The translations under genes and the position numbers were made by a program. Shown in pieces: positions 18,857 through 32,000 of a DNA stretch of 32,000 nt; the first letter of the stretch is position 1; each line of letters opens with the position of its first letter. Origin of the DNA: an uncultured Ruminococcus sp. (GTDB lineage: Bacteria > Bacillota > Clostridia > CAKSNL01 > HGM11501); NCBI GenBank assembly GCA_964466295.1, contig CAYXRC010000004.1:56677-88676 (forward strand), in the 5' to 3' direction. The notes below the pieces were generated by a model. The model was not told where the DNA came from. It saw nothing but the letters and a program-made list of their open reading frames with translations, and did not search any database.

Positions 18857-18997
18857 AAAAACTCCTTTTCATACAAAATACGACTGTTTCAATTAAACGG
18901 AAAAATGCCGCAACGGTAAAACGAACAAAAAGCAGTCATTTTATCATTATGCAGCATATCTTTTATTATGATTCATGTATAAGACTTTGATGTTTTT

Positions 18998-19420
18998 CTA
19001 AAAAAGCTTTCCCAAAAATGACCTGTTTTCCAGCTTTACGCTATCCTCTCTTGAAACCGTTATGTAAACTATCTGATCCTTGGTCGGTGCGGACATGCCG
19101 TATTCATTTACGGCTATATTTTCTACATTTGCCAGGTCAATAATTCTGTCCCTCTCTATTTCCAGATTAGTCTTTTCGGCAACTGCGTTGCTCAGCTCCT
19201 TTTTTGCTGCCTGAAGCTCGTTATTTAAAACCGAAATCCTTGCGTACCTGAGAACGCCGACAAGCGCCACCGCCATTAGCAAAAGAATTGTGCCTATTAT
19301 CTTTTTCTTTTTCGCCTTAACGAAGCTTTCATACCTCGGATTGTCACGTCTTTGAAGTCTTTCTTCTTCCCGCTCTTTGATTTTAATGCGATAGGCGTTA
19401 TTTCCGTTGTATCCGTTCAT
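18998..19420 (-). CDS. ftsL: Cell division protein FtsL (bitopic, coiled-coil)
   Basis: Position between rsmH and the PBP gene. Single TM (IIGTILLLMAVALVGVL) followed by the coiled-coil ISVLNNELQAAKKELSNAVAEKTNLEIERD and ...IENIAVNEYGM. The ATG at 19420 (MNGYNGNN) is preferred because it follows GAGAGGAA. The track starts at the GTG at 19441. Confidence 0.8.
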   Translation of the reverse strand: MNGYNGNNAYRIKIKEREEERLQRRDNPRYESFVKAKKKKIIGTILLLMAVALVGVLRYARISVLNNELQAAKKELSNAVAEKTNLEIERDRIIDLANVENIAVNEYGMSAPTKDQIVYITVSREDSVKLENRSFLGKLF

Positions 19421-19447
19421 TAGGTACCGTTCCTCTCTCACAGGAAT

Positions 19448-20383
19448 TTATTCCTGCATTAATTTTTCCGCAACTCGTAATTTTGCGCTTTTCGCCCTTG
19501 AATTTTCCCTTACCTCTTCATCCTTGGGAAGCAGAGGTTTTTTAGTAATTATTTTTATTTCGGGCTTTTTGCCGCAGACGCACACCGGAAAATCCGGAGG
19601 GCAGGTGCAGCCCTTTGCCAATTTCTTAAATTCTTCCTTTACAATTCTGTCCTCTAAGCTGTGGAAGGTAATAATTCCTATCCTTCCTCCCGGCTTTAAA
19701 AGCCCCACCGCTTTGCCGATTGCTTCCGAAACGGCGTCAAGCTCTCCGTTAACCTCAATTCTTATTGCCTGAAAGGTTCTTTTTGCCGGGTGGCTTCCTT
19801 TTTCTCTTGCACCCTCCGGTACTGCCGCCATAATCGCCGCCGATAATTCCATGGTCGTTTTTATCGGACGTCTTTTAACTATAAACTCGGCAATTCTTTT
19901 TGCCCATCTTTCCTCGCCGTAAAGTCCGATTATTCTTACAAGCTCCCTTTCCGAATACCCGTTTACCACGTCGTAAGCGGAAAATGAGGCGGTTTTATCC
20001 ATACGCATATCAAGAGGTGCGTCCTTCATATAGGAAAAGCCGCGCTCCGCATCGTCTATCTGAGGACTCGATACCCCCAGGTCTGCCATAATTCCGTCAA
20101 AGGATGAAATATTATTTTTTTCTGCCAAAAGGTCAATATCCTTAAAATTTCCGTGCTCGAGTATAACTCTGTTCCCGTAGGGCAAAAGCCTTTCCTTTGC
20201 CGCAGAGAGCGCCGTTTGATCCCTGTCAATACCTAAAAGCACGGCTTTATCGGTCATATCTAAAAGTCTTTCGCTGTGACCTGCTCCGCCTAAGGTCATA
20301 TCGCAGTATACTCCGTCTTTATCGCCTATTACAGCGTCGGTAAGCTCATTTTTTAAAACGGAAATGTGAAAAAAATCACTCAT
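19448..20383 (-). CDS. rsmH: 16S rRNA (cytosine1402-N4)-methyltransferase RsmH/MraW
   Basis: HISVL..E, DMTLGGAGHS, DLGVSSPQID and ITFHSLEDRIVK. Confidence 0.95.
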   Translation of the reverse strand: MSDFFHISVLKNELTDAVIGDKDGVYCDMTLGGAGHSERLLDMTDKAVLLGIDRDQTALSAAKERLLPYGNRVILEHGNFKDIDLLAEKNNISSFDGIMADLGVSSPQIDDAERGFSYMKDAPLDMRMDKTASFSAYDVVNGYSERELVRIIGLYGEERWAKRIAEFIVKRRPIKTTMELSAAIMAAVPEGAREKGSHPAKRTFQAIRIEVNGELDAVSEAIGKAVGLLKPGGRIGIITFHSLEDRIVKEEFKKLAKGCTCPPDFPVCVCGKKPEIKIITKKPLLPKDEEVRENSRAKSAKLRVAEKLMQE

Positions 20384-20828
20384 TTCTGATTTTCTCCACC
20401 TCTTCGGCGGCGTCCTCTAAGGTATTTTCGGGATCGTTAATATAGCTCTGCCACTTAGCCTTATCCCAAATTTCAATTTTGTCAAGAGCACCGATAATGC
20501 TTACCTCTTTATCTATGCCGGCATAGCTTCTTAATATGGGCGGAATAAGCATTCTTCCCTGCTTATCTATATTAAGATCCACTCCTCCGGCGGAAAGGCT
20601 TCTGTTAAGCCTTCTGTGGCTTTTGTCGGTTTCATGCTCTAAATTTTCAAGCATCTTTTCAAGACATTTGTTCCATCCCTCATCGTCGTAAACGGTAAGG
20701 CATCCGTCGTATCCTCTGGTAATATGGCAACGGTCGCCCAAAAGCTCTCTGAATTTGGCAGGCAGTATAACTCTCCCTTTTTCATCCAGTGAATGTTCAT
20801 ATTCTCCGTAAAAAATCGGTCCCGGCAT
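20376..20828 (-). CDS. mraZ: Transcriptional regulator MraZ
   Basis: Two SpoVT/AbrB-like halves carrying DxxxR motifs (LDEKGRVILPAKFRE and IDKQGRMLIPPILR). RBS AAAGGAGG lies 8 nt upstream. Confidence 0.95.
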   Translation of the reverse strand: MPGPIFYGEYEHSLDEKGRVILPAKFRELLGDRCHITRGYDGCLTVYDDEGWNKCLEKMLENLEHETDKSHRRLNRSLSAGGVDLNIDKQGRMLIPPILRSYAGIDKEVSIIGALDKIEIWDKAKWQSYINDPENTLEDAAEEVEKIRNE

Positions 20829-20848
20829 ACCGTCCGCCTCCTTTCGTT

Positions 20849-20873
20849 TCCATTTTACTCCACTTTATTCCAC
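20849..20873 (-). promoter_or_regulatory. Three direct pentamer repeats at 10-bp phasing in the mraZ leader (candidate MraZ boxes)
   Basis: The minus strand reads GTGGA-ataaa-GTGGA-gtaaa-ATGGA, ending 4 nt upstream of the RBS. A fourth GTGGT lies inside the promoter spacer (plus strand ACCAC, 20912-20916). Confidence 0.6.
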
Positions 20874-20904
20874 TAACATACCATTGATACACTACGTTAA
20901 TGCT

Positions 20905-20933
20905 ATTATAAACCACTTTTTACAAAATAGCAA
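20905..20933 (-). promoter_or_regulatory. Putative dcw (Pmra) sigmaA promoter
   Basis: The minus strand reads TTGCTA (20928-20933), a 17-nt spacer, then TATAAT (20905-20910). Confidence 0.55.
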
Positions 20934-20966
20934 TAGTTTTTTTAACTTTTTTAAAATAAAATTAAG

Positions 20967-20995
20967 TTGACAAACGCATATGATAGATTTATAAT
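20967..20995 (+). promoter_or_regulatory. Consensus sigmaA promoter for the VanZ-like gene
   Basis: TTGACA (20967-20972), a 17-nt spacer, then TATAAT (20990-20995). Confidence 0.7.
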
Positions 20996-21028
20996 TATAA
21001 ACAATTCATAATTTTAAGGAAGTATTTT

Positions 21029-21526
21029 ATGAAAAAAAATCTTTTAATCAAAGTTACCATTTTGATTTTAATCGCAATCTGGATTTGTGTTATATCAGGT
21101 TTTTCCGGCGAGGACAGCAAAAGCTCTGATAACACAAGCTCACAAGTGACCGAAATCATTTTAGACAAAACGGTATCCGACTTTTCGGATATGCCCGAGC
21201 ACGATCAAAAGCAATTGGTAAAAAAGACAAACCCGATTGTAAGAAAGGCCGCGCACTTTACCGAGTATGCCCTTTTAGGTTTTCTTATCTCGATGTTTTT
21301 TGTTTTTTCCGGAACGAGGGGCTTAAAGCTTATAATATACACCGCCGCCTTCTGTCTTATATTCTCTTCGGCGGACGAAATTCACCAGTACTTTGTGCCG
21401 GGAAGGTCCTGCCAATTTTCTGATATTTTAATAGATACTTCAGGAGGAGCTCTCGGTGCATTTTTAGTTTTCCTATTTTTAAAGGTAAAACGCCGCTTAT
21501 CCTGTACCACAAAAAATAAAGGATGA
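21029..21526 (+). CDS. VanZ-family membrane protein
   Basis: 165 aa with about 4 TM helices. Motifs: KAAHFTEYALLGFL and DEIHQYFVPGRSCQFSDILIDTSGGALG. Confidence 0.75.
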   Translation: MKKNLLIKVTILILIAIWICVISGFSGEDSKSSDNTSSQVTEIILDKTVSDFSDMPEHDQKQLVKKTNPIVRKAAHFTEYALLGFLISMFFVFSGTRGLKLIIYTAAFCLIFSSADEIHQYFVPGRSCQFSDILIDTSGGALGAFLVFLFLKVKRRLSCTTKNKG

Positions 21527-21549
21527 CTTAAAGTTATCCTTTATTTTTG
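21514..21549 (+). terminator. Rho-independent terminator overlapping the VanZ-like stop codon
   Basis: ATAAAGGAT, an 11-nt loop, ATCCTTTAT, then TTTT. Confidence 0.6.
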
Positions 21550-21674
21550 CCCCCTTCCCTTTTATTAAAATTTTTTTATTTTTTTTGCAACCTTTTTGCC
21601 TTATCAAATGTATTATAAGTGAAAATAAGCTTTAACGCTTATTAATAAACAAAAAAAAGAAAGGAATTACTACT

Positions 21675-22814
21675 ATGAAAAAAAGAGCAATAACAATTTT
21701 AATCTCGGCTTCAATGCTTTTAACAACGGCGGCTTTCGCTAACGAGGCTCCGGAGCCTGAGGTGATATCGGCAAACAGCGGAATTTCATCATACGTTCCC
21801 TCATCTTTAAGGAGCATGATAACAGTAAGCGAAAAGGGCGAAGGCTACATAATCGGAAAAACCGACGAAGGAACAGAATTAAGACTTAATTTATCTGAAA
21901 ATACGGTAATAATCGACAGCGTAACGGCGCTTCCCTTATCCGCTCTCGACATTAAAGAGGGCGACGTGATTTTCGCAGAATATTCCGAGGCTATGACAAG
22001 AAGCCTTCCTCCACAGTCAAGCGCATACTTTATTGCGGCAAACACCGATAAGGGCGGAGGGGTAAATCTTATAAACGTATCGGAAATGAAGAAAAACGAG
22101 GACGGAAGCGTGGCTGTAACGGACTTATCCAAGCAGATAATCGTTACAATATCAAAGGACGCTTTAGTTTCTCCCTATAAAACAAAAAACATCGTTACCC
22201 TTGACGATATAAAAGTGGGCTCTTCCCTTCTTGCCTGGTACGACGTTGTGGCATTAAGTTTGCCCGGTCAGTCGCACACAGACAAGATTGTACTTCTTCC
22301 CGCAAGCGAAACCTCTAATGTTAAGGACGAGGCAGAAAAGCTTGGACTTTTGGGCGACATAGTAATAGCAAACGAAAACTGCTTAAGCCGCAGTGAATTT
22401 TCTTCACTTGTATATAACCTTTTAAATTCCGACGGCTCTCTTTTAGACAAAGACTCGGAGGAGAATTTTAACGATGTTACGGATAAAAGAATTAATCTTC
22501 TCGCTTCCTGCGGTATTGTTTCCGGCAGAGGCGACAAAACCTTTGCTCCCGATGATAAAATAACAAAGGAAGAGGCTTATGTAATGGCCTGCCGTGCGGC
22601 AAAGCACATGGGTATTGAAATCCCTGAAGTTAAGGAACGCACAACTCCCGGCATTGAAAACATATCCGACTGGGCGGTTTCCTCGGTTTTAGGCTTAAAC
22701 AGCTTAAAGGGCATTTCATCTGACGGTGCCTCCTTTAATCCTAAGGGAGATGTTACGGTAAGCGAAGCTGTAGATATTCTTTTGGGAATTAACTCTCTTA
22801 AAGCTTCTGAATAA
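21675..22814 (+). CDS. Secreted protein with C-terminal S-layer homology (SLH) repeats and an N-terminal domain of unknown function
   Basis: Signal peptide MKKRAITILISASMLLTTAAFA. SLH-like repeats: FNDVTDKRINLLASCGIVSGRGDKTFAPDDKITKEEAYVM and ISDWAVSSVLGLNSLKGISSDGASFNPKGDVTVSEAVDIL. Confidence 0.6.
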   Translation: MKKRAITILISASMLLTTAAFANEAPEPEVISANSGISSYVPSSLRSMITVSEKGEGYIIGKTDEGTELRLNLSENTVIIDSVTALPLSALDIKEGDVIFAEYSEAMTRSLPPQSSAYFIAANTDKGGGVNLINVSEMKKNEDGSVAVTDLSKQIIVTISKDALVSPYKTKNIVTLDDIKVGSSLLAWYDVVALSLPGQSHTDKIVLLPASETSNVKDEAEKLGLLGDIVIANENCLSRSEFSSLVYNLLNSDGSLLDKDSEENFNDVTDKRINLLASCGIVSGRGDKTFAPDDKITKEEAYVMACRAAKHMGIEIPEVKERTTPGIENISDWAVSSVLGLNSLKGISSDGASFNPKGDVTVSEAVDILLGINSLKASE

Positions 22815-22825
22815 TGCTCCCCCAT

Positions 22826-22867
22826 AAAAAATACCGCAAAGCACTTTAAAGCTTTGCGGTATTTTTT
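22826..22867 (+). terminator. Rho-independent terminator
   Basis: AAAAAATACCGCAAAGC, a loop, then GCTTTGCGGTATTTTTT. Confidence 0.85.
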
Positions 22868-22928
22868 CTATATTGTTTTTTATTTACTTTTGTGTTATAA
22901 TTTTAAAAAAACTTATGGGAGTATTTTT

Positions 22929-23873
22929 ATGAAAAAGATTAAAAAGGTTACTCTGTGCGGTCTTGGCGCTATCGGCGCTTTTTTTGCCGACAGACTAAGA
23001 GAAGATTCGGATATAGTTTTTAATGTTTTAGCCGGCGGCGAACGTGCAGACCGCCTTAGGGAAAAAGGTCTTATAATAAACGGGCGTCAGAAATACTTTA
23101 ATATTGTATCACCGGAGGAAAAGACTTCTTTTTCAGACCTTATCATTATCTCGACAAAATTTTCCGGCCTTAAAACCGCCTTGGAGGATATAAAAAATCA
23201 AGTCGGACCGGACACCTTAATTATGGCGCCTTTAAACGGAGTGGAAAGCGAGGATGCGGTTGCATCGGTCTACGGATTTGAGCGTACAATTTATTCATTG
23301 GTGCGTGTCAGCAGTGTTAAGAACTCAAATAAAGTAAGCTTTGACCCCGAAACCTCCTTTGTGGAATTCGGTGAAAGAATAAACGACCCGTCAAATCCCT
23401 CGGAAAATGTTTCCGCCATAAAGGCTCTTTTTGATCATGCCAAAATAAAGTCGGTCATACAGCCCGATATGCAAAAGGCAATATGGGAAAAATTTGTCTG
23501 CAACGTAAGCGAAAATCAAGTGTCCGCAGTTTTGGATATACCCTTTGGCGCCTGGGGCTCGTCAAAAAGCGCCGATCAATTAAGACTTATGGTTGCGGAC
23601 GAGGTTATTTCGGTTGCAGAAAAAAAGGGAATATCAATAGACCGTGACTATCCAAGAAGGCATCTTGAATTTCTTAAAAAGGTGCCCGTCGAAAATAAAT
23701 CCTCCACCCTTCAGGATATATTGGCCGGGCGGAAAACAGAAAAGGATATTTTTTCAGGCGCAATGATAAGGCTTGGCAGAGAAACGGGAGTGCCGACTCC
23801 GTTAAACGAATTTTTATACCACGCCTTAACCGTACTTGAGGAAAAAAACGACGGAAAAATAATGGGAATATAG
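22929..23873 (+). CDS. 2-dehydropantoate 2-reductase family oxidoreductase (PanE/ApbA-like)
   Basis: N-terminal Rossmann motif VTLCGLGAIGAFFADRL, followed by ApbA-like organisation (..STKF..L...L...., K.SMLQD-type STLQDILAGRKTE). The start is set at MKKIKKV, after GGGAG. The track start at 22854 lies inside the upstream terminator. Confidence 0.65.
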   Translation: MKKIKKVTLCGLGAIGAFFADRLREDSDIVFNVLAGGERADRLREKGLIINGRQKYFNIVSPEEKTSFSDLIIISTKFSGLKTALEDIKNQVGPDTLIMAPLNGVESEDAVASVYGFERTIYSLVRVSSVKNSNKVSFDPETSFVEFGERINDPSNPSENVSAIKALFDHAKIKSVIQPDMQKAIWEKFVCNVSENQVSAVLDIPFGAWGSSKSADQLRLMVADEVISVAEKKGISIDRDYPRRHLEFLKKVPVENKSSTLQDILAGRKTEKDIFSGAMIRLGRETGVPTPLNEFLYHALTVLEEKNDGKIMGI

Positions 23874-23897
23874 CTCTCCTAATAAAATTGAAAATGG

Positions 23898-23952
23898 GGT
23901 ACAGACATATTTTGACTATCCTTTTAAACCAGGTTGAAAAATATGTCCGTAC
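23898..23952. repeat. 16-bp inverted repeat with a 23-nt loop (possible shared terminator)
   Basis: GGTACAGACATATTTT (23898-23913) pairs with AAAATATGTCCGTACC (23937-23952) with one mismatch. On the plus strand it is followed by TCATATTTTT. Confidence 0.45.
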
Positions 23953-23961
23953 CTCATATTT

Positions 23962-24189
23962 TTATGCTAGCCTGACGATACCAATTTTGGGCACCGATTT
24001 TGCAAGGCGCAGCCGTCTTATGTAGTTTGACGGAGTAGTTCCCGTTCTCTCCTCAAACAGCTTAGAGGCGTACCACGGCGAATAATGAGAAACCTCTGAA
24101 AGCTTTGCCGGCGTAATAGCTTCAAAAAGATTTTTCTCTATGTAATTTTGCATTTCCTGTACTGCCCTCGTACGCTGCGAAATAAAAGC
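23962..24189 (-). pseudogene. AraC/XylS-family regulator remnant (first HTH only)
   Basis: The open frame AFISQRTRAVQEMQNYIEKNLFEAITPAKLSEVSHYSPWYASKLFEERTGTTPSNYIRRLRLAKS is a typical AraC HTH-1. It begins directly after a TGA, so there is no ligand-binding domain. It ends prematurely. A ..WYRQ.. C-terminal-like string appears in another frame. Confidence 0.6.
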
Positions 24190-24252
24190 TCACCCCTTAC
24201 AAAATACATTATAACGCTTAAGGAGAATGAATTTCTCGACTTTTTTGCTCTA

Positions 24253-24291
24253 TTAAAAAAGGCGGAAAGCTCGCTATAAAGCTTTCCGTCC
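24253..24291 (-). terminator. Rho-independent terminator ending the redox/fumarase operon
   Basis: The minus strand reads GGACGGAAAGC, a loop, GCTTTCCGCC, then TTTTTT. It starts 5 nt after the fumarase beta stop. Confidence 0.8.
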
Positions 24292-24295
24292 TTTC

Positions 24296-24859
24296 TTATT
24301 TATTTTTTACGCTTTCGAGATAATTTTTTCTGCCCTCTTCATAAAGGTTATTGCCCTCGCTGTCAATGATAACTACCAGAGGCATATCCTCAACATAAAG
24401 ACGTCTTAACGCTTCGGATTGAAGATCCTCGTACGCCACAAGCTCACACTTTTTAACGCATTTTGCCAAAAGTGCGCCGGCGCCGCCGATAGCTCCGAAG
24501 TATACGCCCGAATACTTTTTCATAGCCTCAACAACCTCGGGAAGGCGTGCTCCCTTGCCTATCATACCCCTTGCGCCCACACTCATCATAGTGGGAGCGT
24601 AAGCGTCCATACGTCCGCTGGTAGTAGGTCCGGCAGAGCCGATTACATGCCCGGGCTTTGCCGGCGTGGGACCGACATAATAGATAGTAGCGTCAGTGGG
24701 GTCAAAGGGGAGCTTTTCACCCCGTGCGAGCGCCTCGCACATTCTTTTGTGTCCTGCATCTCTTGAGGTGTATATTGTACCGGTTAAGAGCACCTTATCT
24801 CCTGCGTGGAGAGTCCTTGCAAGCTCCTCGGTAAGAGGAAGAGTTATGCGCTTTTCCAT
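24296..24859 (-). CDS. Class I Fe-S hydro-lyase beta subunit (fumarate hydratase FumB-type; tartrate dehydratase not excluded)
   Basis: 187 aa. Motifs: LLTGTIYTSRDAGHKR and GPTTSGRMD. TAATG overlap with the alpha subunit, and RBS GGAGGTGA. Confidence 0.8.
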   Translation of the reverse strand: MEKRITLPLTEELARTLHAGDKVLLTGTIYTSRDAGHKRMCEALARGEKLPFDPTDATIYYVGPTPAKPGHVIGSAGPTTSGRMDAYAPTMMSVGARGMIGKGARLPEVVEAMKKYSGVYFGAIGGAGALLAKCVKKCELVAYEDLQSEALRRLYVEDMPLVVIIDSEGNNLYEEGRKNYLESVKNK

Positions 24860-25701
24860 TATATCACCTCCGTTTTATGACGTGTAACGTGGCAGTTTAT
24901 ATTTACCGCACAGGGCATTCCGGCAATATGGGTGGGCATTGTTTCTATATTAAGAGCAATTGCCGTAGTCTTACCTCCGAAGCCCTGAGGTCCGATTCCA
25001 AGCTGGTTTACCTTTTCGAGCATTTCTTTTTCAAGGTCAGCGTAATAGGGATCGGGATTAGAAGAGCCTAAATCACGCATCAATGCCTTTTTAGCCAAAA
25101 GAGCGCATTTATCAAAGGTACCGCCTATGCCTACTCCGACTACCATGGGAGGACAGGGGTTGGGACCTGCGGTTTCCACCGCCTCTAAAATAAAGTTTTT
25201 AATACCTTCAAGTCCGGCAGAGGGCTTGAACATACGGATAGCGCTCATATTTTCACTTCCGAAGCCCTTGGGACCCACGGTGATTTTAATATTTTCGCCC
25301 GGCACTATCTCGGTATAAAGCATTGCCGGAGTATTGTCGCCGGTGTTGCCTCTTCTTATGGGGTCGGCTACAACGGACTTTCTTAAATATCCGTTGGTAT
25401 AGCCTCTTCTTACTCCCTCGTTAACCGCCTCGGTAAGGTCGCCGCCTATAAGGTGAACATCCTGTCCGATTTCGAGAAATACGCACGCAACGCCCGTATC
25501 CTGACAAATCGGCACGTTTTCCGAGTCTGCAATTTCATAATTTTTTATTATGTTATCCAAAACGCCCTTTGCGATTTCTCCGTCCTCTTCCTTTCGGCAG
25601 GCAGTGATAGCGCACTTTACGTCTTCGGGAAGATGGGTATTTGCCTCAATGCAAAGTCTTTCGATAACGTCCGTAAGCTGACTTACGTTTATCTCACGCA
25701 T
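24859..25701 (-). CDS. Class I Fe-S hydro-lyase alpha subunit (fumarate hydratase FumA-type)
   Basis: 280 aa. Motifs: PICQDTGVACVFLEIGQDV, PPMVVGVGIGGTFD and GPQGFGGKTTA. Confidence 0.8.
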   Translation of the reverse strand: MREINVSQLTDVIERLCIEANTHLPEDVKCAITACRKEEDGEIAKGVLDNIIKNYEIADSENVPICQDTGVACVFLEIGQDVHLIGGDLTEAVNEGVRRGYTNGYLRKSVVADPIRRGNTGDNTPAMLYTEIVPGENIKITVGPKGFGSENMSAIRMFKPSAGLEGIKNFILEAVETAGPNPCPPMVVGVGIGGTFDKCALLAKKALMRDLGSSNPDPYYADLEKEMLEKVNQLGIGPQGFGGKTTAIALNIETMPTHIAGMPCAVNINCHVTRHKTEVI

Positions 25702-25726
25702 AATCTTTATTCCTTTCTTTAAGGTT

Positions 25727-26911
25727 TTACAATAACAATCCTATAAACTGGCACGAAAGTACCACGCACACAAGTGCAATCGGGTAGGTTGCCGCATAAG
25801 CAGAGGCAACGTCGTCCGTTCCGGTAACGCTTATAAGTGTGCCGAGAGCCGGAGTGCTTGTCATTCCGCCGCAGATAGAGCCTAATGTGTTAAATATTCT
25901 AAGCTTTAATACCTTAGATGCAACGATATATCCTAAAATCATGGGAACTAAGGTTATAAGCGCTCCGTATAAGAAGAGCACCGCTCCCTGTTCTTTTAAA
26001 ATCCGGACAAAATCTGCGCCTGCGCCTGTTCCTGCGCCAAGCAGGAACATACAAAGACCGAATTCTCTCATACATTCAAGAACATTTTTTTCAACCTTTA
26101 AGCTGAGCTTTCCGATATGTCCGAAATGTCCGAGTATAAGTCCGGCGATTAAGGGGCCGCCCGATGTGCCGAGGGAAAATTCCGCTCCGCCCGGAAGCGG
26201 AATTTTAATCTTCGCCAAAACTATGCCCAAAACTATGGCAAGAGCGAGGGGCAAAAATCCCATAGGCTCCGCACGGAAAAGCTTTTTTTCTTCCTTTTTT
26301 ACGGATACGCTTGATGCGGCTTCAAATTCAGCTCTTTCCTTTGCCATATCAAGCTTTAAGAACTTAGGTATAAGCTGAACGAAAAGCACAACTCCGATAA
26401 CTCCGAAAGGATAGGCTATACCGTAGCCCACAGAAGCTAAGCTCTGCGCCGTTTCGGCATTTCCTGCCGTTGCAGCAGCGGCCGCCGCCTCCTGAGCCGC
26501 CGCAAGACCGGGAGTACTTGTAAGAGCCCCTGCCATCATTCCGACTCCGATTTCTTTAGGGATTGAGCCGAGCTTTATTACAGCTACGGTAGTCAGCGCC
26601 CCTACAAGAATAATTATAAAGCCCAAAAGAATATAGTTTTTCGCATTAACCTTAAAGTTTCTGAAAAATTTAGGTCCGGCTATAAATCCTACCGAGGTAA
26701 CAAATAAAATAAGTCCGAGATCGCCGATTTCCTTAGGAACACTGAAGCCGAAATGCCCGAAAACAAGCGCTGCAAGCAAAACTCCGGCAGTACCTATTTC
26801 AATGCCCTTTATCTTTATGCTTCCTACAAGATATCCGACCGCCGCAATAAGGAAAACGACCATAAAGGTGTTGCCCATTACGCTCTCGGTAAACCAATTT
26901 AAAAGTCCCAT
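25727..26911 (-). CDS. AAEx (aspartate:alanine exchanger / YidE-YbjL) family transporter, short form without central RCK_C domains
   Basis: 394 aa made of two homologous hydrophobic halves (MVVFLIAAVGYLVGSIKIKGIEIGTAGVLLAALVFGH... and LPLALAIVLGIVLAKIKIPLPGGAEFSLGTSGGPLIAGLILGH...). The halves are joined by a charged linker of roughly 30 aa. Confidence 0.65.
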   Translation of the reverse strand: MGLLNWFTESVMGNTFMVVFLIAAVGYLVGSIKIKGIEIGTAGVLLAALVFGHFGFSVPKEIGDLGLILFVTSVGFIAGPKFFRNFKVNAKNYILLGFIIILVGALTTVAVIKLGSIPKEIGVGMMAGALTSTPGLAAAQEAAAAAATAGNAETAQSLASVGYGIAYPFGVIGVVLFVQLIPKFLKLDMAKERAEFEAASSVSVKKEEKKLFRAEPMGFLPLALAIVLGIVLAKIKIPLPGGAEFSLGTSGGPLIAGLILGHFGHIGKLSLKVEKNVLECMREFGLCMFLLGAGTGAGADFVRILKEQGAVLFLYGALITLVPMILGYIVASKVLKLRIFNTLGSICGGMTSTPALGTLISVTGTDDVASAYAATYPIALVCVVLSCQFIGLLL

Positions 26912-26930
26912 TTTCCTTGTCTACGCCTCC

Positions 26931-28529
26931 TTATCTTGCGTGTCTTGCATATTTAGGAAGAAGCAAGGGAGAGGTTTCGCCCGTTTCAATGCCCGCGTTT
27001 TCAAGCTCTTCGGCATATTTTTCAACATGTGACAGAGTAAGCTTTCCGAGGCTTATATCTTTAGCTCTCTTCGCCGCCGCCTTGCCTGCGTTTCTTCCGA
27101 ATACGATTATATCAAGCAGTGAATTTCCCATAAGACGGTTACGTCCGTGAATACCGCCTACCGCCTCGCCGGCAACAAGGAGGTTATCTATAACCTTAGT
27201 AAAGCCATCTCCGCCGATTTCAAGACCGCCGTTCTGATAATGAAGTGTGGGATATACCAAAATCGGCACTTTTCTCATATCTATATCATAGTTAAGATAC
27301 ATTCTCATCATTGCGGGAATTCTCTTTTCAATCGTGCCCTCCCCATGAAGAATTTCAATCATAGGAGTATCAAGCCATACGCCCGAGCCTAAAGGTGTTT
27401 CAACGCCTCTTCCGTTGGCACATTCACGGATAATTGCAGATGCAGAAACATCACGGGTTTCCAAGGGGTGAGCATAGGCTTCACCATCTTTATTTACAAG
27501 CATTGCTCCCAACGACCTTACCTTTTCCGTAACAAGCGCTCCGAAAATCTGTGCCGGGTAAGCTACGCCTGTGGGATGATACTGAATTGTATCCTGATAA
27601 AGTAAGGGTGCGCCGGCACGATAGCCCATTATAAGTCCGTCAGCCGTCGCCCCGTAGTGATTTGATGTGGGGAAATTATTGTAGTGAAGTCTTCCCGCTC
27701 CGCCGGTGGCGATAATTACGGTCTTTGCTCTTGCAACGAGATACTCGTCGGTTTCCATGTTAAGAAGCACGGCTCCGGCAACGTGACCCTCCTCGTCCTT
27801 TATAAGCTCCACAGCCGCAGTAAAGTCGGCTACGGGAATCTTTCTGTTTAACACCTCGTCACGAAGTGTTCTCATTATCTCGGCGCCGGAATAGTCCTTG
27901 CACGCATGCATTCTCTTTCTCGAGGTGCCGCCGCCGTGAGTAGTTACCATTTCGCCGTCCTTGGTTTTATCGAACATTACGCCCAGATTGCTAAGCCATG
28001 CTATTGCGTCGGGCGCTTCCATTACAAGACGTCTTAAAAGCTCGGGACGGGCGGCAAAATGTCCGCCTCCGAAAGCGTCAAGATAGTGTCTTTCGGGAGA
28101 ATCATTGGGCTTATCCGCCGCCTGAATTCCGCCCTCCGCCATCATGGTATTGGCGTCGCCTATACGGAGCTTTGTGACAATCATAACATTTGCTCCGGCT
28201 TCGGAGGCTTCTATTGCGGCAGAACAGCCTGCTCCGCCTCCGCCTATTACCAAAACGTCAACGTCGTAGTCAATTTTATTTAAGTCAATATCCACGCCCA
28301 AAATACGACTGTTTGACGATAAAAGCCTGCAAAGCTCCAAGGGAGCCTTTTCGCCCTTATTGGGTCCTATTTTGATTTCGCCGAAGCCCTCCGGTCTGTA
28401 ATCGGGATGATATGCTTTTAAGAGCTCGTCTTTCTCTTCTGCCGTCATACGTCTTGGCTCTGTCTTCATTCTTTCGCTTCTTGTCGCTTCAACTTTTTTA
28501 ATGGATTCAAGCATTTTTTCTGTAAACAT
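26931..28529 (-). CDS. FrdA/SdhA-like FAD flavoprotein (atypical: N-terminal extension, no covalent-FAD His, short C-terminus)
   Basis: VLVIGGGGAGCSAA dinucleotide fold, IIATGGAGR, IQYHPTG, PTLHYQNGGLEI and GEAVGGIHGRNRLMGNSLLD. RBS AAGGAGGG lies 5 nt upstream. Confidence 0.8.
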   Translation of the reverse strand: MFTEKMLESIKKVEATRSERMKTEPRRMTAEEKDELLKAYHPDYRPEGFGEIKIGPNKGEKAPLELCRLLSSNSRILGVDIDLNKIDYDVDVLVIGGGGAGCSAAIEASEAGANVMIVTKLRIGDANTMMAEGGIQAADKPNDSPERHYLDAFGGGHFAARPELLRRLVMEAPDAIAWLSNLGVMFDKTKDGEMVTTHGGGTSRKRMHACKDYSGAEIMRTLRDEVLNRKIPVADFTAAVELIKDEEGHVAGAVLLNMETDEYLVARAKTVIIATGGAGRLHYNNFPTSNHYGATADGLIMGYRAGAPLLYQDTIQYHPTGVAYPAQIFGALVTEKVRSLGAMLVNKDGEAYAHPLETRDVSASAIIRECANGRGVETPLGSGVWLDTPMIEILHGEGTIEKRIPAMMRMYLNYDIDMRKVPILVYPTLHYQNGGLEIGGDGFTKVIDNLLVAGEAVGGIHGRNRLMGNSLLDIIVFGRNAGKAAAKRAKDISLGKLTLSHVEKYAEELENAGIETGETSPLLLPKYARHAR

Positions 28530-28540
28530 ATTATCCCTCC

Positions 28541-29218
28541 TTATTTCTCTATATCACGGTTATTGTAAAGCTCCTGCATCTCTTCGATAGGTTTCTGCAT
28601 AATCTTTTCAATAAGCTCGTCAAATTTTCCGTGATTGATTTCGTCAACTCTCTCTTCAAGATGCTTGCACTCGGGAGCAATATATTTTCCGGTCAGTCTT
28701 CTTGCCAAAAGTCCTACCATGGGGTGGCTTATTCCGGCGGGACATCTTACCGAACAACAGCCGCAGCCTACGCAGTCAAAGGACTCCTCGGCGCATTTTT
28801 CAAACTCGCCTCTTTGCGCATAGGCGATATACTGCATTACGTTAAGGTTCTGTGTACACGCCTTTGTGCAGGCATTGCATCCGATACAGGAATATATCTC
28901 GGGATAAAGCTCCATCATAACCTTGGTTTCCGGTCTTATCTCTTCTATATCGTAGGTTCTTTTATCTATCGGGAAGAAAGGTATGCTTGCGATATACATT
29001 CCCTCCTCAACCTGGGTCTGACAGGCAAGGCAGGTCTTAAGCTCGTTCTTGCCCTTTATGCGGTATATGGTCGCACAGGCTCCGCAGAAGCCGTGACGGC
29101 AGCCGCAGCCTCTTTTTAAGGTGTAGCCGGCGTATTCCATAGCAGTCATTATAGTAAGGTCGGCAGGCACTTCATACTTCTTGCCGAATAAATATATATT
29201 TACCATATCTTTTTCCAT
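28541..29218 (-). CDS. SdhB/FrdB-like iron-sulfur subunit ([2Fe-2S] N-terminal domain plus two Cys4 cluster motifs)
   Basis: GCGCRHGFCGACATIY...CLAC, then CIGCNACTKAC and CVGCGCCSVRCP. The start is set at the ATG at 29218 (MEKDMVNIY), 9 nt after AAGGAG. The track's TTG at 29239 overlaps the upstream gene. Confidence 0.75.
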   Translation of the reverse strand: MEKDMVNIYLFGKKYEVPADLTIMTAMEYAGYTLKRGCGCRHGFCGACATIYRIKGKNELKTCLACQTQVEEGMYIASIPFFPIDKRTYDIEEIRPETKVMMELYPEIYSCIGCNACTKACTQNLNVMQYIAYAQRGEFEKCAEESFDCVGCGCCSVRCPAGISHPMVGLLARRLTGKYIAPECKHLEERVDEINHGKFDELIEKIMQKPIEEMQELYNNRDIEK

Positions 29219-29235
29219 AAAAGCATTCTCCTTTA

Positions 29236-30090
29236 TCAATATTCGTCCGGAAGCTCATCCACTTCGTCACAGCGGAATACCGGTCCGTCCTTGCATACGT
29301 ATTTGGAGCCTATATTGCATCTTCCGCACTTACCTACTCCGCATTTCATGCGAAGCTCAAGGGTAGTATATACCTGTTCCTTTGAAAAGCCCATTTCGGT
29401 AAGCCCCTGGAGCACGAACTTAATCATAATCGGGGGACCGCATATAAGCGCCGTTTTATCGGTTGAAAAGCCTATCTCCTTAAGATATGACGGTACGAAG
29501 CCCACATGACCGTCCCAGCCCTCCTGCTCTCTGTCTATGGTAAGGTATACGTTGGTATCCTTCTGCTTTGTCCACACTTCTTGTATCTCCTTAAGCTGAA
29601 CAAGGTCGTCCTTTGACCTGGAGCCGTACAATATATCAACCTTTCCGTAATCCTCGCGGTTATCGAAAACGTAGTTTATTACCGACCTTAAGGGAGCAAG
29701 ACCGATACCGCCGGCGATAAAGAGCAAATCCTTGCCCTTAAGCTTATCCTCTACGGGGAAGTGATTGCCGTACGGTCCTCTTACTGCGATTTCATCGCCC
29801 ACCGAAAGGCTGTGAAGGTATTCTGTGAGCATACCGCACTTTTTGATTGAAAACTCCTGATACTCCTTATTTGTGGGAGAAGAGGTGATTGAAAACATAC
29901 CCTCGCTTACGCCGGGTGCACAGAGCATTGCACACTGACCGGGCATATGCTCGAAAAGCTTTCCGCCCTCCGGAGCGTTTACCCTGAAGGTCTTAACGTC
30001 GGGAGTTTCTTCTCTTATATCAGTAATTATTCCCACCTTGGGAATGAGTACATCCTCTACATAATTTTTATGACAGGTACATTCACTCAT
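29236..30090 (-). CDS. FAD/NAD(P)-binding oxidoreductase with C-terminal [2Fe-2S] (AsrB / sulfhydrogenase gamma / PyrK-like)
   Basis: FNR-like fold: MFSITSSP (FAD), RGPYGNHF and LLFIAGGIGLAPLRS (NAD(P)). C-terminal CGVGKCGRCNIG...C cluster motif. Confidence 0.8.
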   Translation of the reverse strand: MSECTCHKNYVEDVLIPKVGIITDIREETPDVKTFRVNAPEGGKLFEHMPGQCAMLCAPGVSEGMFSITSSPTNKEYQEFSIKKCGMLTEYLHSLSVGDEIAVRGPYGNHFPVEDKLKGKDLLFIAGGIGLAPLRSVINYVFDNREDYGKVDILYGSRSKDDLVQLKEIQEVWTKQKDTNVYLTIDREQEGWDGHVGFVPSYLKEIGFSTDKTALICGPPIMIKFVLQGLTEMGFSKEQVYTTLELRMKCGVGKCGRCNIGSKYVCKDGPVFRCDEVDELPDEY

Positions 30091-31120
30091 TTTGTCCGCC
30101 CTCCTTGGAAAATGCTTTTATTACCTTGACAATATTAAGCGACGACGGGCAGCTGTCCACACACCGTCCGCATCCCACACAGGAGAACACTCCGCCGTTA
30201 TTGACGGGGAAATACTGAAGCTTGTGCATAAATCTCTGGCGGAAGCGCTGCATCTGGCTCGTTCTGTTATTGCCGTGCGCCATCATGGTAAAATCGGAAT
30301 ACATGCAAGAGTCCCAGCAACGGTAACGCTCTATCTTACTGCCCGTATTATAGTCCTTTATATCGTAGCACTGACAGGTGGGGCATGAAAAGGTGCATGT
30401 ACCGCAGCCTAAGCAGGGAGAGTAAAGCTTTTCCCACAAGGGGGAATTAAAAATCTCCTCCGTCTTTTCGTTATGTCCCCACATATCAAGAGAAAGGTCT
30501 GCATAAGGAAGCTTTTTAAGCGTTTCTTCCGTAGCCTTCTTCTGAGCTTCAACCGCCGCAGAGTCAGACTCCTCCAAAAGAGAGGATATGCTTTCCAAAA
30601 ACGCCTTTCCCTTTTCGGTCGCCGCCTCAAAGTAAACGTTTTCGTCGTCTATCCACATTGCAGCGTCCGCCGACGGCTCTCCGGGCTTTATGCCGAAAAC
30701 CGTGCAGAAGCACGAGGCCTCCGGATAGCGGCAGGCAAGAGAAACGATTGTTCCGTGCTCTCGTCTTGCCTCATAGAAGGTATCCTTAGGCTCGGACAAA
30801 AACACCTTGTCCAAAACCTCAATACCTGCCACGTCGCAGGGCTTAATTCCCATAAGGACGAACTCCCTGTCCTTAAGCTTTTCAGGCTCGATTTTTATTT
30901 TTCCGCCGTTTTCAAGGCAGGTATATAAAGTTTCGCTCTGAGGGAAGAATACGTCCTTTGCGGACTTTACGGTTTTTAAGGTTTCAAAATCAACTTCCGA
31001 ATCGGCGGTGTATAAGGCGAAATTTGTCTTATCCGCTTCTCTTACGGGAAGATAAAGCTCCTCTTTCTCGGAAATAAGGGCAAAGAGCTTATAAAGATTT
31101 TCTTTTTTCATTTTTTTCAT
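30083..31120 (-). CDS. 4Fe-4S dicluster protein (AsrA / sulfhydrogenase beta-like)
   Basis: IKPCDVAGI, CRYPEASCFC, CLGCGTCTFSCPTCQC, RCWDSC and CVGCGRCVDSCP. 8-nt overlap with the downstream gene. Confidence 0.75.
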   Translation of the reverse strand: MKKMKKENLYKLFALISEKEELYLPVREADKTNFALYTADSEVDFETLKTVKSAKDVFFPQSETLYTCLENGGKIKIEPEKLKDREFVLMGIKPCDVAGIEVLDKVFLSEPKDTFYEARREHGTIVSLACRYPEASCFCTVFGIKPGEPSADAAMWIDDENVYFEAATEKGKAFLESISSLLEESDSAAVEAQKKATEETLKKLPYADLSLDMWGHNEKTEEIFNSPLWEKLYSPCLGCGTCTFSCPTCQCYDIKDYNTGSKIERYRCWDSCMYSDFTMMAHGNNRTSQMQRFRQRFMHKLQYFPVNNGGVFSCVGCGRCVDSCPSSLNIVKVIKAFSKEGGQNE

Positions 31121-31128
31121 CTCTGCTC

Positions 31129-32000
31129 TTACCTCCTTTCTCCGGGCTCTAAATCTTCAAACTGATAGCTTGTCAAGGGTCCTTTATCCTCTGCGTTTTC
31201 GCCTGCAACATATTCTCCGTAATACGAGTCTATATCCTTTATAAACTTTTTGTTGAAAAGGTGAAGAGGTATTCCCTGTGGACATACTCTTGAACATTCT
31301 CCGCAGTCGGTGCATCTTCCGGCAACGTGGAAGGACCTTATAATGTGGAACATTTTCTCCTCAAAGGAATCGGTATTTGCCTTCTGAGAGCTGTCAAACT
31401 GATTGCCGTCAAACACGCATTTGCGGCAGCTGCACGCAGGACATACGTTACGGCATGCGTTACACCTTATGCACTTTGAAAGCTCGCTCTTAAAGAAAGC
31501 GAAGCGCTCCTCGGGAGTCATTTTTTCAATTTTTTCTACCTCGTCAAACCGTCCCTCTTTAGCTGTATCCTTGCTTTCTCCGATTATTTCGTCGTAAACC
31601 TTATGCTCCTTGCCCTTGCACATACGGCATCTTGACAATATAGCGTCGGAATACTTCATTTCGCCGGAGCCGTATAAGGTTTCGACGGTAAGATCAGAGT
31701 CGGAAAACTCTTCGGCGCCGCCTACGGCGGTAATGCCCTTAAATCCGTTTTCCTTTATTTTATTCATATCTATTTTGCCCCGACATCCTACGCCGATTAT
31801 ATAAGCCTTATCACGATCCACCCTATGCTCTTTTATAAGCTGATTAAAGCTATAGGTATCGCAGGGCTTTAAGAATACCAAGGTCTTACCCTCTTTTTTG
31901 GAGGCTTCTATCATGAATTTGCTAAGGTTAGCGCCGCAAAAGCCGTTATAAACGAAGGACTCCAAATCCTTTTCGTTTTCAAAATAGGCAGGCTCCGGAT
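31129..32000 (-). CDS. Second Cys-rich Fe-S protein, related in layout to the AsrA/HydB-like subunit (5' end beyond the window)
   Basis: The frame stays open upstream of the track's TTG at 31965 (..PEPAYFENEKDLESFVYNG..). Motifs: LKPCDTYS, CRMCKGKEH, CIRCNACRNVCPACSCRKC and CTDCGECSRVCP. Confidence 0.6.
   Translation of the reverse strand, partial: PEPAYFENEKDLESFVYNGFCGANLSKFMIEASKKEGKTLVFLKPCDTYSFNQLIKEHRVDRDKAYIIGVGCRGKIDMNKIKENGFKGITAVGGAEEFSDSDLTVETLYGSGEMKYSDAILSRCRMCKGKEHKVYDEIIGESKDTAKEGRFDEVEKIEKMTPEERFAFFKSELSKCIRCNACRNVCPACSCRKCVFDGNQFDSSQKANTDSFEEKMFHIIRSFHVAGRCTDCGECSRVCPQGIPLHLFNKKFIKDIDSYYGEYVAGENAEDKGPLTSYQFEDLEPGERR

Follow-up and report, generated by a model that had tools for sequence, protein, structure and literature searches.

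A thiol:fumarate reductase, TfrAB, was reportedly described in Methanothermobacter by Heim et al. (1998), and the fumarate reductase of Pseudoclostridium thermosuccinogenes is said to have been first described in a 2019 preprint by Koendjbiharie and van Kranenburg. In the 'succinate operon' of P. thermosuccinogenes, seven genes encode an NADH (nicotinamide adenine dinucleotide) dehydrogenase/heterodisulfide reductase (Hdr) complex and two genes encode a fumarate reductase, next to genes for a fumarate hydratase and for a small protein annotated as hypothetical (PMC7282089). Transcriptomics shows that this operon is highly expressed, and it was read, as a hypothesis rather than from enzymology, as an Flx-Hdr-linked fumarate reductase that reduces ferredoxin (PMC7282089). 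Rubin-Blum et al. (2019) found that, in tubeworm symbionts and in Thioflavicoccus mobilis, the gene clusters of the reverse tricarboxylic acid (rTCA) cycle have tfrAB interspersed with flxABCD-hdrABC, and proposed that the Flx-Hdr complex of the symbionts delivers electrons directly to fumarate reductase (PMC6315080). The Flx-Hdr complex of Desulfovibrio is genetically characterized; in the summary of Ramos et al. (2015) given in PMC10084766, it is proposed to bifurcate electrons from NADH, with DsrC as the presumed acceptor. In a preprint from 2024, HdrA of Ruminococcus champanellensis is listed with a STRING association to a Sdh/Frd flavoprotein, which is left uninterpreted. Here we describe an operon that joins Flx, Hdr and fumarate reductase genes in a stretch of 32,000 nucleotides (nt), referred to as the window, from an uncultured Ruminococcus sp. 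(contig CAYXRC010000004.1, positions 56,677 to 88,676).

The window holds the last eight of the 13 genes of an operon, or its 3´ two-thirds; the operon is dedicated to the reductive branch that leads from oxaloacetate to succinate. Its arrangement has been noticed twice and is predicted but biochemically uncharacterized in the literature searched, and the locus exemplifies it in a very typical form. An earlier note, made from the window sequence alone, knew of no characterized enzyme of this composition, which still appears to be true, although the arrangement itself had already been described (PMC7282089; PMC6315080). We are confident that the operon encodes an Flx-Hdr-linked fumarate reductase that serves succinate formation. 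The more specific reading, a bifurcating NADH:ferredoxin/fumarate enzyme, is the one that we regard as probable, and most of that probability belongs to a version in which HdrB acts as an electron relay.

The operon in the window and beyond its edge

The list of open reading frames (ORFs) covered window positions 22000–32000, and the encoded proteins were searched with Pfam and NCBIfam profiles. Eight consecutive genes occupy the minus strand from 24296 to the window edge and are separated by spacers of 8–25 nt or otherwise overlap by 1–8 nt, which agrees with the tight packing described in the earlier note. The Pfam domains predicted there (FAD_binding_2, Fer2_3/Fer4_8, DHODB_Fe-S_bind with NAD_binding_1, and Fer4_22) were all found. 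Its core observation also stands: an anchor-less, soluble fumarate reductase module is wired to an NAD(P)H module of the AsrAB/sulfhydrogenase/Flx type, in the same operon as a fumarase and an AAE-family transporter. From the 3´ end of the operon, the features are as follows (Fe-S, iron-sulfur).

24263..24288, minus strand: terminator-like hairpin with a 10-bp stem (5 GC pairs), then the T-run CCTTTTTTAA
24296..24859, minus strand: fumB, class I (Fe-S) fumarate hydratase beta subunit (FumB/TtdB family), 187 amino acids; Pfam Fumerase_C, 1.3e-56
24859..25701, minus strand: fumA, class I (Fe-S) fumarate hydratase alpha subunit, 280 amino acids; Pfam Fumerase, 1.2e-119
25727..26911, minus strand: short AAE-family transporter, 394 amino acids; Pfam Asp-Al_Ex twice, 1.1e-76
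26931..28529, minus strand: FrdA/TfrA-like flavoprotein, 532 amino acids; FAD_binding_2, 1.9e-70
28541..29218, minus strand: Fe-S subunit resembling FrdB and the TfrB N-terminus, 225 amino acids; Fer2_4, Fer2, Fer2_3 and Fer4_7/Fer4_8
29236..30090, minus strand: FlxA (HydG/AsrB-like) subunit for FAD, NAD(P)H and [2Fe-2S], 284 amino acids; FAD_binding_6, NAD_binding_1 and DHODB_Fe-S_bind
30083..31120, minus strand: FlxB (HydB/AsrA-like) Fe-S subunit, 345 amino acids; Fer4_22, 2.6e-30
31129..32000, minus strand: FlxC-like Cys-rich Fe-S subunit, partial; Fer4_8, 2.7e-9

The hairpin begins 8 nt past the fumB stop codon and is likely the end of the operon. FumA and FumB each exceed NCBIfam equivalog cut-offs, as expressed by 423 bits with PRK06246 'fumarate hydratase' (cut-off 276) and 294 bits with PRK06842 (cut-off 238), respectively, and make up a two-subunit Fe-S fumarate hydratase. 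The AAE transporter contains a YidE_YbjL duplication domain and eight transmembrane-like segments; from its gene context, it is predicted to be an exporter or exchanger of a C4-dicarboxylate (succinate). The frdB-like gene starts at ATG 29218, as called on a near-identical contig, and an alternative TTG at 29239 would give 232 amino acids. The FlxC gene crosses the window edge: on two overlapping contigs (L001 and L002) the protein is 320 amino acids long, its initial ~30 codons lie outside the window and its start is 91 nt past the edge. A TTG at 31965 was rejected as the start of this gene, being an artefact of the window edge.

The remainder of the operon was read from related contigs. L001, which was found with the exact AsrA-like protein sequence, is 100% identical to window positions 29671–32000 and extends 487 nt further. 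L002 is a 60-kb contig that is colinear with, and 98.9% identical to, window positions 16933–32000 (15 kb), and an 88%-related NCBI assembly (L003) has the same operon layout as L002. Five further genes lie upstream on L002 and L003.

Outside the window, first gene of the operon: LDH-family dehydrogenase (Mdh), 315 amino acids
Outside the window, four genes past its end: HdrB, 264 amino acids; CCG domain
Outside the window: HdrC, 127 amino acids; HdrC model, 2e-17
Outside the window: HdrA, 668 amino acids; structure 5odc_A, 2e-202
Outside the window, directly before the FlxC gene: MvhD/FlxD, 146 amino acids; FlpD/VhuD model

The complete order is mdh, hdrB, hdrC, hdrA, mvhD (flxD), flxC, flxB, flxA, frdB, frdA, AAE transporter, fumA and fumB, and a near-consensus promoter-like site (TTGACA, 17 nt, TG-TAAAAT) is located 5´ of mdh. 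HdrA is aligned end to end with the HdrA of a bifurcating methanogen enzyme (residues 9–666 with residues 5–649 of 5odc_A, at the E-value listed above). HdrB matches HdrB structures over its full length (1e-35), and two intact CCG motifs (CX31-39CCX35-36CXXC) are readable in it. The MvhD/FlpD-type protein bears the motifs CNWCSYAGADLAG...GCHPGDCHY. Mdh marginally exceeds the cut-offs of NCBIfam L-lactate dehydrogenase (LDH) models, and carries Arg at the Q102 specificity position of LDH ('IARKPGQTR'), which we take to be a malate-dehydrogenase signature.

These genes bear on several claims of the earlier note. Its guess that HdrA or MvhD would be found past position 32000 was correct for both, and the operon begins with mdh. 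The five-subunit composition that it gave does not hold because the operon continues with MvhD, HdrA, HdrC, HdrB and Mdh; a five-subunit enzyme without Hdr is excluded by the synteny with hdrABC and mvhD in 59/59 loci. Its statement that there is neither a membrane anchor nor a CCG-type subunit is right for the window, and no redox subunit has a transmembrane segment, but HdrB, in the same operon just upstream, is a CCG-domain subunit of the kind that the note itself had named as contrary evidence. The claim that electrons cannot arrive through a CCG/thiol-type subunit consequently fails.

FlxA matches the gamma subunit of Pyrococcus sulfhydrogenase I (9nez_C, 3e-58) and is the predicted entry point of NADH. 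FlxB matches the ShyB, AsrA and HydB models at 1e-47 to 2e-52 and 9nez_B at 1.4e-42, FlxC has Fer4-type matches only, and both the AsrA/HydB-like and the AsrB/HydG-like subunits score under all equivalog cut-offs. The TfrB model is matched in pieces, its N-terminus by FrdB, its middle by HdrC and its C-terminus by HdrB, and the best match of HdrB is the SdhE model (type-E fumarate reductase), tied with the HdrB model; this split and this tie provide a precedent for FrdB beside HdrB. Transmembrane-like segments are confined to the AAE transporter; the redox subunits are soluble, and the operon contains no membrane-anchor gene. The operon on L002 and L003 contains no AsrC (siroheme) or hydrogenase gene either, which excludes an anaerobic sulfite reductase or a sulfhydrogenase. 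The examined neighbourhoods have no adh or dsrC, and frdBA, fumarase and mdh are found there instead.

The FrdA–FrdB pair and its conservation

FAD_binding_2 spans residues 91–471 of the flavoprotein. The top NCBIfam match is TfrA (NF004900; 340.8 bits against a cut-off of 718, model positions 6–427 of 546), followed by SdhA/FrdA models (284 bits) and NadB (254 bits against a cut-off of 639, and 252 against 453). On these scores the flavoprotein is a distinct subfamily, since all curated models are matched well under their family cut-offs. The chains of quinol:fumarate reductase and succinate dehydrogenase in the PDB are matched with E-values of 1e-50 to 1e-65. Residue alignment to E. coli FrdA and SdhA pairs the following positions with those of E. 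coli FrdA.

H318: H232
T334 and E335: T244 and E245
R359: R287, the proton donor
H430: H355
R465: R390

The family alignment (A1), which reaches down to 40% identity, shows no variation at H318, E335, R359, H430, R465 and N127; T334 is invariant among close relatives. Asn127 occupies the position of His44, to which flavin adenine dinucleotide (FAD) is covalently bound in E. coli FrdA. Enzymes of the complex II family require covalent FAD for succinate oxidation, not for fumarate reduction. The FAD of the flavoprotein is therefore predicted to be non-covalent, and the invariant Asn127 in place of the covalent-FAD His suggests that the enzyme works in the direction of fumarate reduction. The retention of the dicarboxylate-binding and catalytic residues of FrdA, together with the linkage to fumarase and, in most loci, to mdh, points to fumarate as the substrate.

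The flavoprotein differs from TfrA, FrdA, SdhA and NadB at both ends. It has an N-terminal extension of 88 amino acids (reported at window positions 26931–27194; motifs HPDY and GPNKGE), in which H41, P42, G55, N57 and G59 vary little or not at all, and lacks the C-terminal helical domain; the Pfam search gave no match to Succ_DH_flav_C (PF02910). When the flavoprotein was modelled with AlphaFold2 from a shallow alignment (25 sequences that are at least 85% identical), the mean predicted local distance difference test score was 56, too low to search for similar folds or to position the extension.

In the FrdB-like protein, a [2Fe-2S] motif of the plant type is followed by CxxCxxCxxxC, which occurs twice in complete form. 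Because the two CxxCxxCxxxC motifs supply eight Cys, the protein is predicted to carry two [4Fe-4S] clusters rather than one [4Fe-4S] and one [3Fe-4S] cluster. Its remote matches are TfrB (residues 19–91), dhsB and SDHB/FrdB chains in the PDB (E-values of 1e-5 to 4e-4), and the Pfam search detects no CCG domain in it. The frdB-like gene lies directly 5´ of the flavoprotein gene in 79/79 Clostridia loci and in 55/60 loci of a distant clade, and one protein (P0124, 727 amino acids) is a natural fusion of an FrdB-like part (N-terminal 222 amino acids) and the flavoprotein. The fusion and the gene adjacency support a physical interaction between FrdB and FrdA.

To determine the distribution of the operon, profiles were scanned against one genome per species. 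At least 597 genomes contain relatives of the flavoprotein; the best 80 loci, at 70–87% identity, all belong to gut or rumen Clostridia (Oscillospiraceae, Acutalibacteraceae, Lachnospiraceae, Christensenellaceae and others), and the Lachnospiraceae among them include Fusicatenibacter faecihominis, Sporofaciens musculi and Ohessyouella blattaphilus. The 13 operon proteins were mapped onto these 80 loci, and the core was counted where at least 7.3 kb of upstream sequence is available. The nine-gene core from hdrB to frdA is complete and colinear in all 59 such loci. In most loci, mdh is also present, as is an AAE transporter, of which two types occur.

A fumarase gene is present in 39 of the 40 loci that have both flanks, as class I fumAB in 21 and class II fumC in 18. 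The class I genes are situated downstream, as in the window, and fumC is inserted between mdh and hdrB (for example L062:1388-2779, and 17 other loci). This swap is a non-orthologous gene displacement in an otherwise invariant operon. That one and the same redox core has recruited two fumarases of unrelated origin is, as comparative evidence, a strong argument that it consumes fumarate. NadB, AprA and other non-fumarate flavoproteins were excluded as identities of the flavoprotein by the profile ranking, the obligatory Fe-S partner and the linkage to fumarase and mdh.

A distant clade (L084–L158) from environmental metagenomes, with NCBI names in Gammaproteobacteria/Thiotrichales, encodes a flavoprotein of 45–48% identity that has the N-terminal extension. 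The FrdB-FrdA pair is kept in this clade, and no Hdr or Flx gene occurs within 9 kb. Instead, a gene for a NuoF-like protein with Complex1_51K FMN (flavin mononucleotide) and NADH_4Fe-4S domains directly follows frdBA in 39/49 loci (e.g. L089:8366-11891). In L098 (6226-15157), mdh genes and a 2-oxoacid:ferredoxin oxidoreductase adjoin. The clade looks like it possesses a three-subunit soluble NADH:fumarate reductase, possibly with a role in the rTCA cycle. Its pairing of FrdBA with a NuoF-like NADH subunit argues for NADH as the ultimate donor. FrdBA appears to be a portable fumarate-reducing unit that is attached to alternative NADH-oxidizing modules, and by this comparison the bifurcation machinery is a specific acquisition of the Clostridia version. 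A flavoprotein of 44% identity with the N-terminal extension (P0134/P0285) is also annotated as a protein of Prochlorococcus sp. MIT 1201 (WP_413360575.1), an unexpected host.

Proposed electron path and competing explanations

Judged by synteny and analogy, HdrABC, FlxABCD and FrdAB probably form one assembly of nine subunits. Mdh and the Fe-S fumarase would convert oxaloacetate to fumarate. FlxA would take a hydride from NADH, rather than from NADPH, and the Fe-S clusters of FlxB, FlxC and FlxD would pass the electrons to the FAD of HdrA, where bifurcation would occur. The low-potential electron would leave to ferredoxin via the ferredoxin domains of HdrA. The high-potential electron would enter HdrC, continue over the pair of non-cubane clusters in HdrB and reach FrdB, in which the chain would run [4Fe-4S], [4Fe-4S], [2Fe-2S], and on to the non-covalent FAD of FrdA, where fumarate would be reduced. 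Succinate would exit via the AAE transporter, and the overall stoichiometry would be 2 NADH + fumarate + 2 Fd(ox) -> 2 NAD+ + succinate + 2 Fd(red) (Fd, ferredoxin). This reaction is exergonic, at about -33 to -49 kJ/mol, calculated with standard potentials of -320 mV for NAD, +33 mV for fumarate and -420 to -500 mV for ferredoxin, and the calculated energy yield is comparable to that of the crotonyl-CoA system. A quinone-free fermenter could then conserve energy from fumarate reduction by re-oxidizing the ferredoxin with Rnf, Ech or a hydrogenase.

In its most detailed form, this scheme describes one soluble supercomplex of nine proteins in which the non-cubane [4Fe-4S] clusters of HdrB are a pure relay to FrdB, with no thiol substrate, and fumarate is the high-potential acceptor of a bifurcating NADH:ferredoxin/fumarate oxidoreductase. 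To this complete version we give somewhat less than even weight. Several points weigh against the bifurcating scheme. No biochemical or structural characterization of any Flx-Hdr-Frd arrangement was found in the literature searched, and complex formation and the electron path from HdrB to FrdB are argued from synteny and analogy. The proteins of P. thermosuccinogenes were compared by gene order and lengths alone. HdrB keeps a complete active site of the heterodisulfide reductase type, which makes a thiol/disulfide intermediate possible. The NuoF-linked clade, finally, implies that FrdBA is presumably functional without bifurcation.

The site in HdrB leads to the best of the competing explanations, which we nevertheless consider unlikely. 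Here Flx-Hdr would bifurcate electrons to ferredoxin and to a low-molecular-weight or protein disulfide at HdrB, with the thiol as an obligatory intermediate that is re-oxidized at the same CCG site and feeds FrdB and FrdA; the system would be a split version of the methanogen thiol:fumarate reductase, with the same net chemistry as the relay. It accounts for both CCG motifs and the full-length alignment of HdrB to catalytic HdrB, for TfrA as the top-scoring model of the flavoprotein and for the division of the TfrB model halves between FrdB and HdrB, and both prior papers name thiols or Tfr as the donor (PMC7282089; PMC6315080). However, neither a gene for a thiol carrier (DsrC, TusA) nor one for thiol biosynthesis is present in the operon or its conserved neighbourhood, and FrdB is devoid of the CCG domain. 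Coenzyme M (CoM) and coenzyme B (CoB), moreover, are to our knowledge not known from Clostridia.

A second explanation, to which we attach still less weight, is a non-bifurcating soluble NAD(P)H:fumarate oxidoreductase in which Hdr and Flx are only an electron wire and ferredoxin is not reduced. The distant clade with FrdBA and a NuoF-like subunit makes a plain NADH:fumarate reductase plausible, and Miura et al. (2008) reportedly purified a soluble NADH-dependent multi-subunit fumarate reductase from Hydrogenobacter thermophilus. In such an enzyme, however, three subunits would suffice and seven more would be needless, whereas the full-length HdrA with all its ferredoxin domains is kept together with MvhD in 59/59 loci. 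We know of no role of HdrA besides flavin-based bifurcation or confurcation. The H2 inhibition of succinate formation in P. thermosuccinogenes, which was read as ferredoxin coupling (PMC7282089), also speaks against it. The earlier note had preferred the simple oxidoreductase and had mentioned bifurcation as speculation; with HdrABC and MvhD in the operon, the simple enzyme is now less likely than the ferredoxin-coupled one, and bifurcation has become the leading hypothesis.

A different substrate or direction, such as L-aspartate (as in NadB), another enoate or confurcating succinate oxidation, is very improbable. In its favour, no NCBIfam equivalog cut-off is reached by the flavoprotein and the NadB scores (252–254 bits) are close below that of TfrA (341), NadB has the same catalytic residues as the fumarate reductase flavoprotein, and the AAE family includes aspartate:alanine exchangers. 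Against it, the flavoprotein has a constant and once fused FrdB-like partner that NadB lacks, its linkage is to Mdh and to fumarases of two unrelated classes and not to nadA or nadC, the Asn at the covalent-FAD position speaks against succinate oxidation, and high expression of the homologous operon is known from an organism that produces succinate.

Surroundings, significance and comparison with known systems

The rest of the window has ordinary chromosomal content. Positions 711–21526 contain a complete dcw cluster (mraZ, rsmH, a penicillin-binding protein gene, mraY, ftsW, murG, a murA-like gene, ftsQ and ftsZ), together with recA, murJ and genes for a DUF5693 protein and a 906-amino-acid NAGPA (phosphodiester glycosidase) protein. 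A gene for an SLH-domain protein is located at 21675–22814, and an ApbA gene elsewhere in the neighbourhood. In the stretch that separates this ApbA gene from the terminator of the operon, an ORF on the minus strand (23962–24153) encodes 63 amino acids (73 as called on L002) with only a fragment of an AraC-type HTH_18 domain; it may be the remnant of a truncated regulator or a small stand-alone HTH protein.

What is of interest is the class more than this single locus: a possible fumarate-dependent bifurcating enzyme with a wide distribution among gut Clostridia. As far as we found, the breadth of the distribution, the displacement between class I and class II fumarases, the FrdB-FrdA fusion and the NuoF-linked sister arrangement are new. 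If the bifurcating reading is true, fumarate would be the acceptor of a further class of flavin-based bifurcating enzymes, beside the crotonyl-CoA, caffeyl-CoA, heterodisulfide, pyruvate/lactate and other types, and it would provide the first demonstration of an HdrABC-type enzyme that passes electrons to a C=C bond via an Frd module. It would explain how Clostridia without quinones and cytochromes form succinate and gain energy from the potential drop between NADH and fumarate. Hundreds of quinone-free gut species, in groups that include Oscillospiraceae, Lachnospiraceae and Christensenellaceae, would then perform an energy-conserving 'fumarate respiration' via Rnf or Ech. Gut succinate, which is a key metabolite in cross-feeding and host signalling, would have a route separate from the quinol:fumarate reductase of Bacteroides, and the enzyme would be relevant to engineered anaerobic succinate production.

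Compared with AsrABC and Pyrococcus sulfhydrogenase, the operon has beta- and gamma-like subunits and no AsrC or [NiFe] hydrogenase. NadB differs from the window flavoprotein, which is under the NadB equivalog cut-offs and has an adjacent Fe-S partner. E. coli FrdABCD and SdhABCD share the fold family and the fumarate-binding and catalytic residues of the flavoprotein and the N-terminal [2Fe-2S] domain of the Fe-S subunit. In contrast to them, the system described here has no anchor, Asn127 instead of His, no Succ_DH_flav_C domain and eight Cys for two [4Fe-4S] clusters, and an involvement of quinone is not predicted.

With Methanothermobacter TfrAB, the system shares several features. TfrA is the top curated model, the enzyme is cytoplasmic and anchor-less, its Fe-S partner has [2Fe-2S] and [4Fe-4S] motifs without a [3Fe-4S] motif, and it includes a CCG module. 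However, ~120 C-terminal residues of TfrA are missing here, the 88-residue N-terminal extension is added, and the score is far under 718. The CCG domains are located on a separate HdrB here and are fused to the Fe-S subunit there, and the predicted donor is NADH via Flx-Hdr here, compared with CoM-SH and CoB-SH there.

The tubeworm symbionts resemble the Clostridia, as judged by description, in the association of a Tfr-like fumarate reductase with Flx-Hdr and mdh; unlike the Clostridia, they are autotrophic Gammaproteobacteria in which the genes belong to the rTCA cycle (acl, korABCD), not to a fermentative succinate branch (PMC6315080). FlxABCD-HdrABC of D. vulgaris, as far as PMC10084766 describes it, is soluble and consists of the same seven subunit types (FlxA, FlxB, FlxC, the MvhD-like FlxD, HdrA, HdrB and HdrC), but its genes come after one for an alcohol dehydrogenase, and the DsrC disulfide is proposed as its high-potential acceptor. 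In the operon described here, frdBA is next after the module, mdh, fumarase and transporter genes surround them, and the predicted acceptor is fumarate.

The operon of P. thermosuccinogenes is compared by order and lengths alone, from supplement coordinates. Unlike the window-type operon, it has a class II fumC upstream in place of the class I fumAB downstream and a 250-nt hypothetical gene where the 394-amino-acid AAE transporter sits here, and mdh is not named within it. Both operons include a fumarase, and the redox core has the same order and near-equal gene lengths: hdrB of 784 nt, hdrC of 325 nt, five genes of 5348 nt, the Fe-S gene of 676 nt and the flavoprotein gene of 1603 nt in P. 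thermosuccinogenes, compared with 264, 127, 668+146+320+345+284, 225 and 532 amino acids, respectively, in the operon described here.

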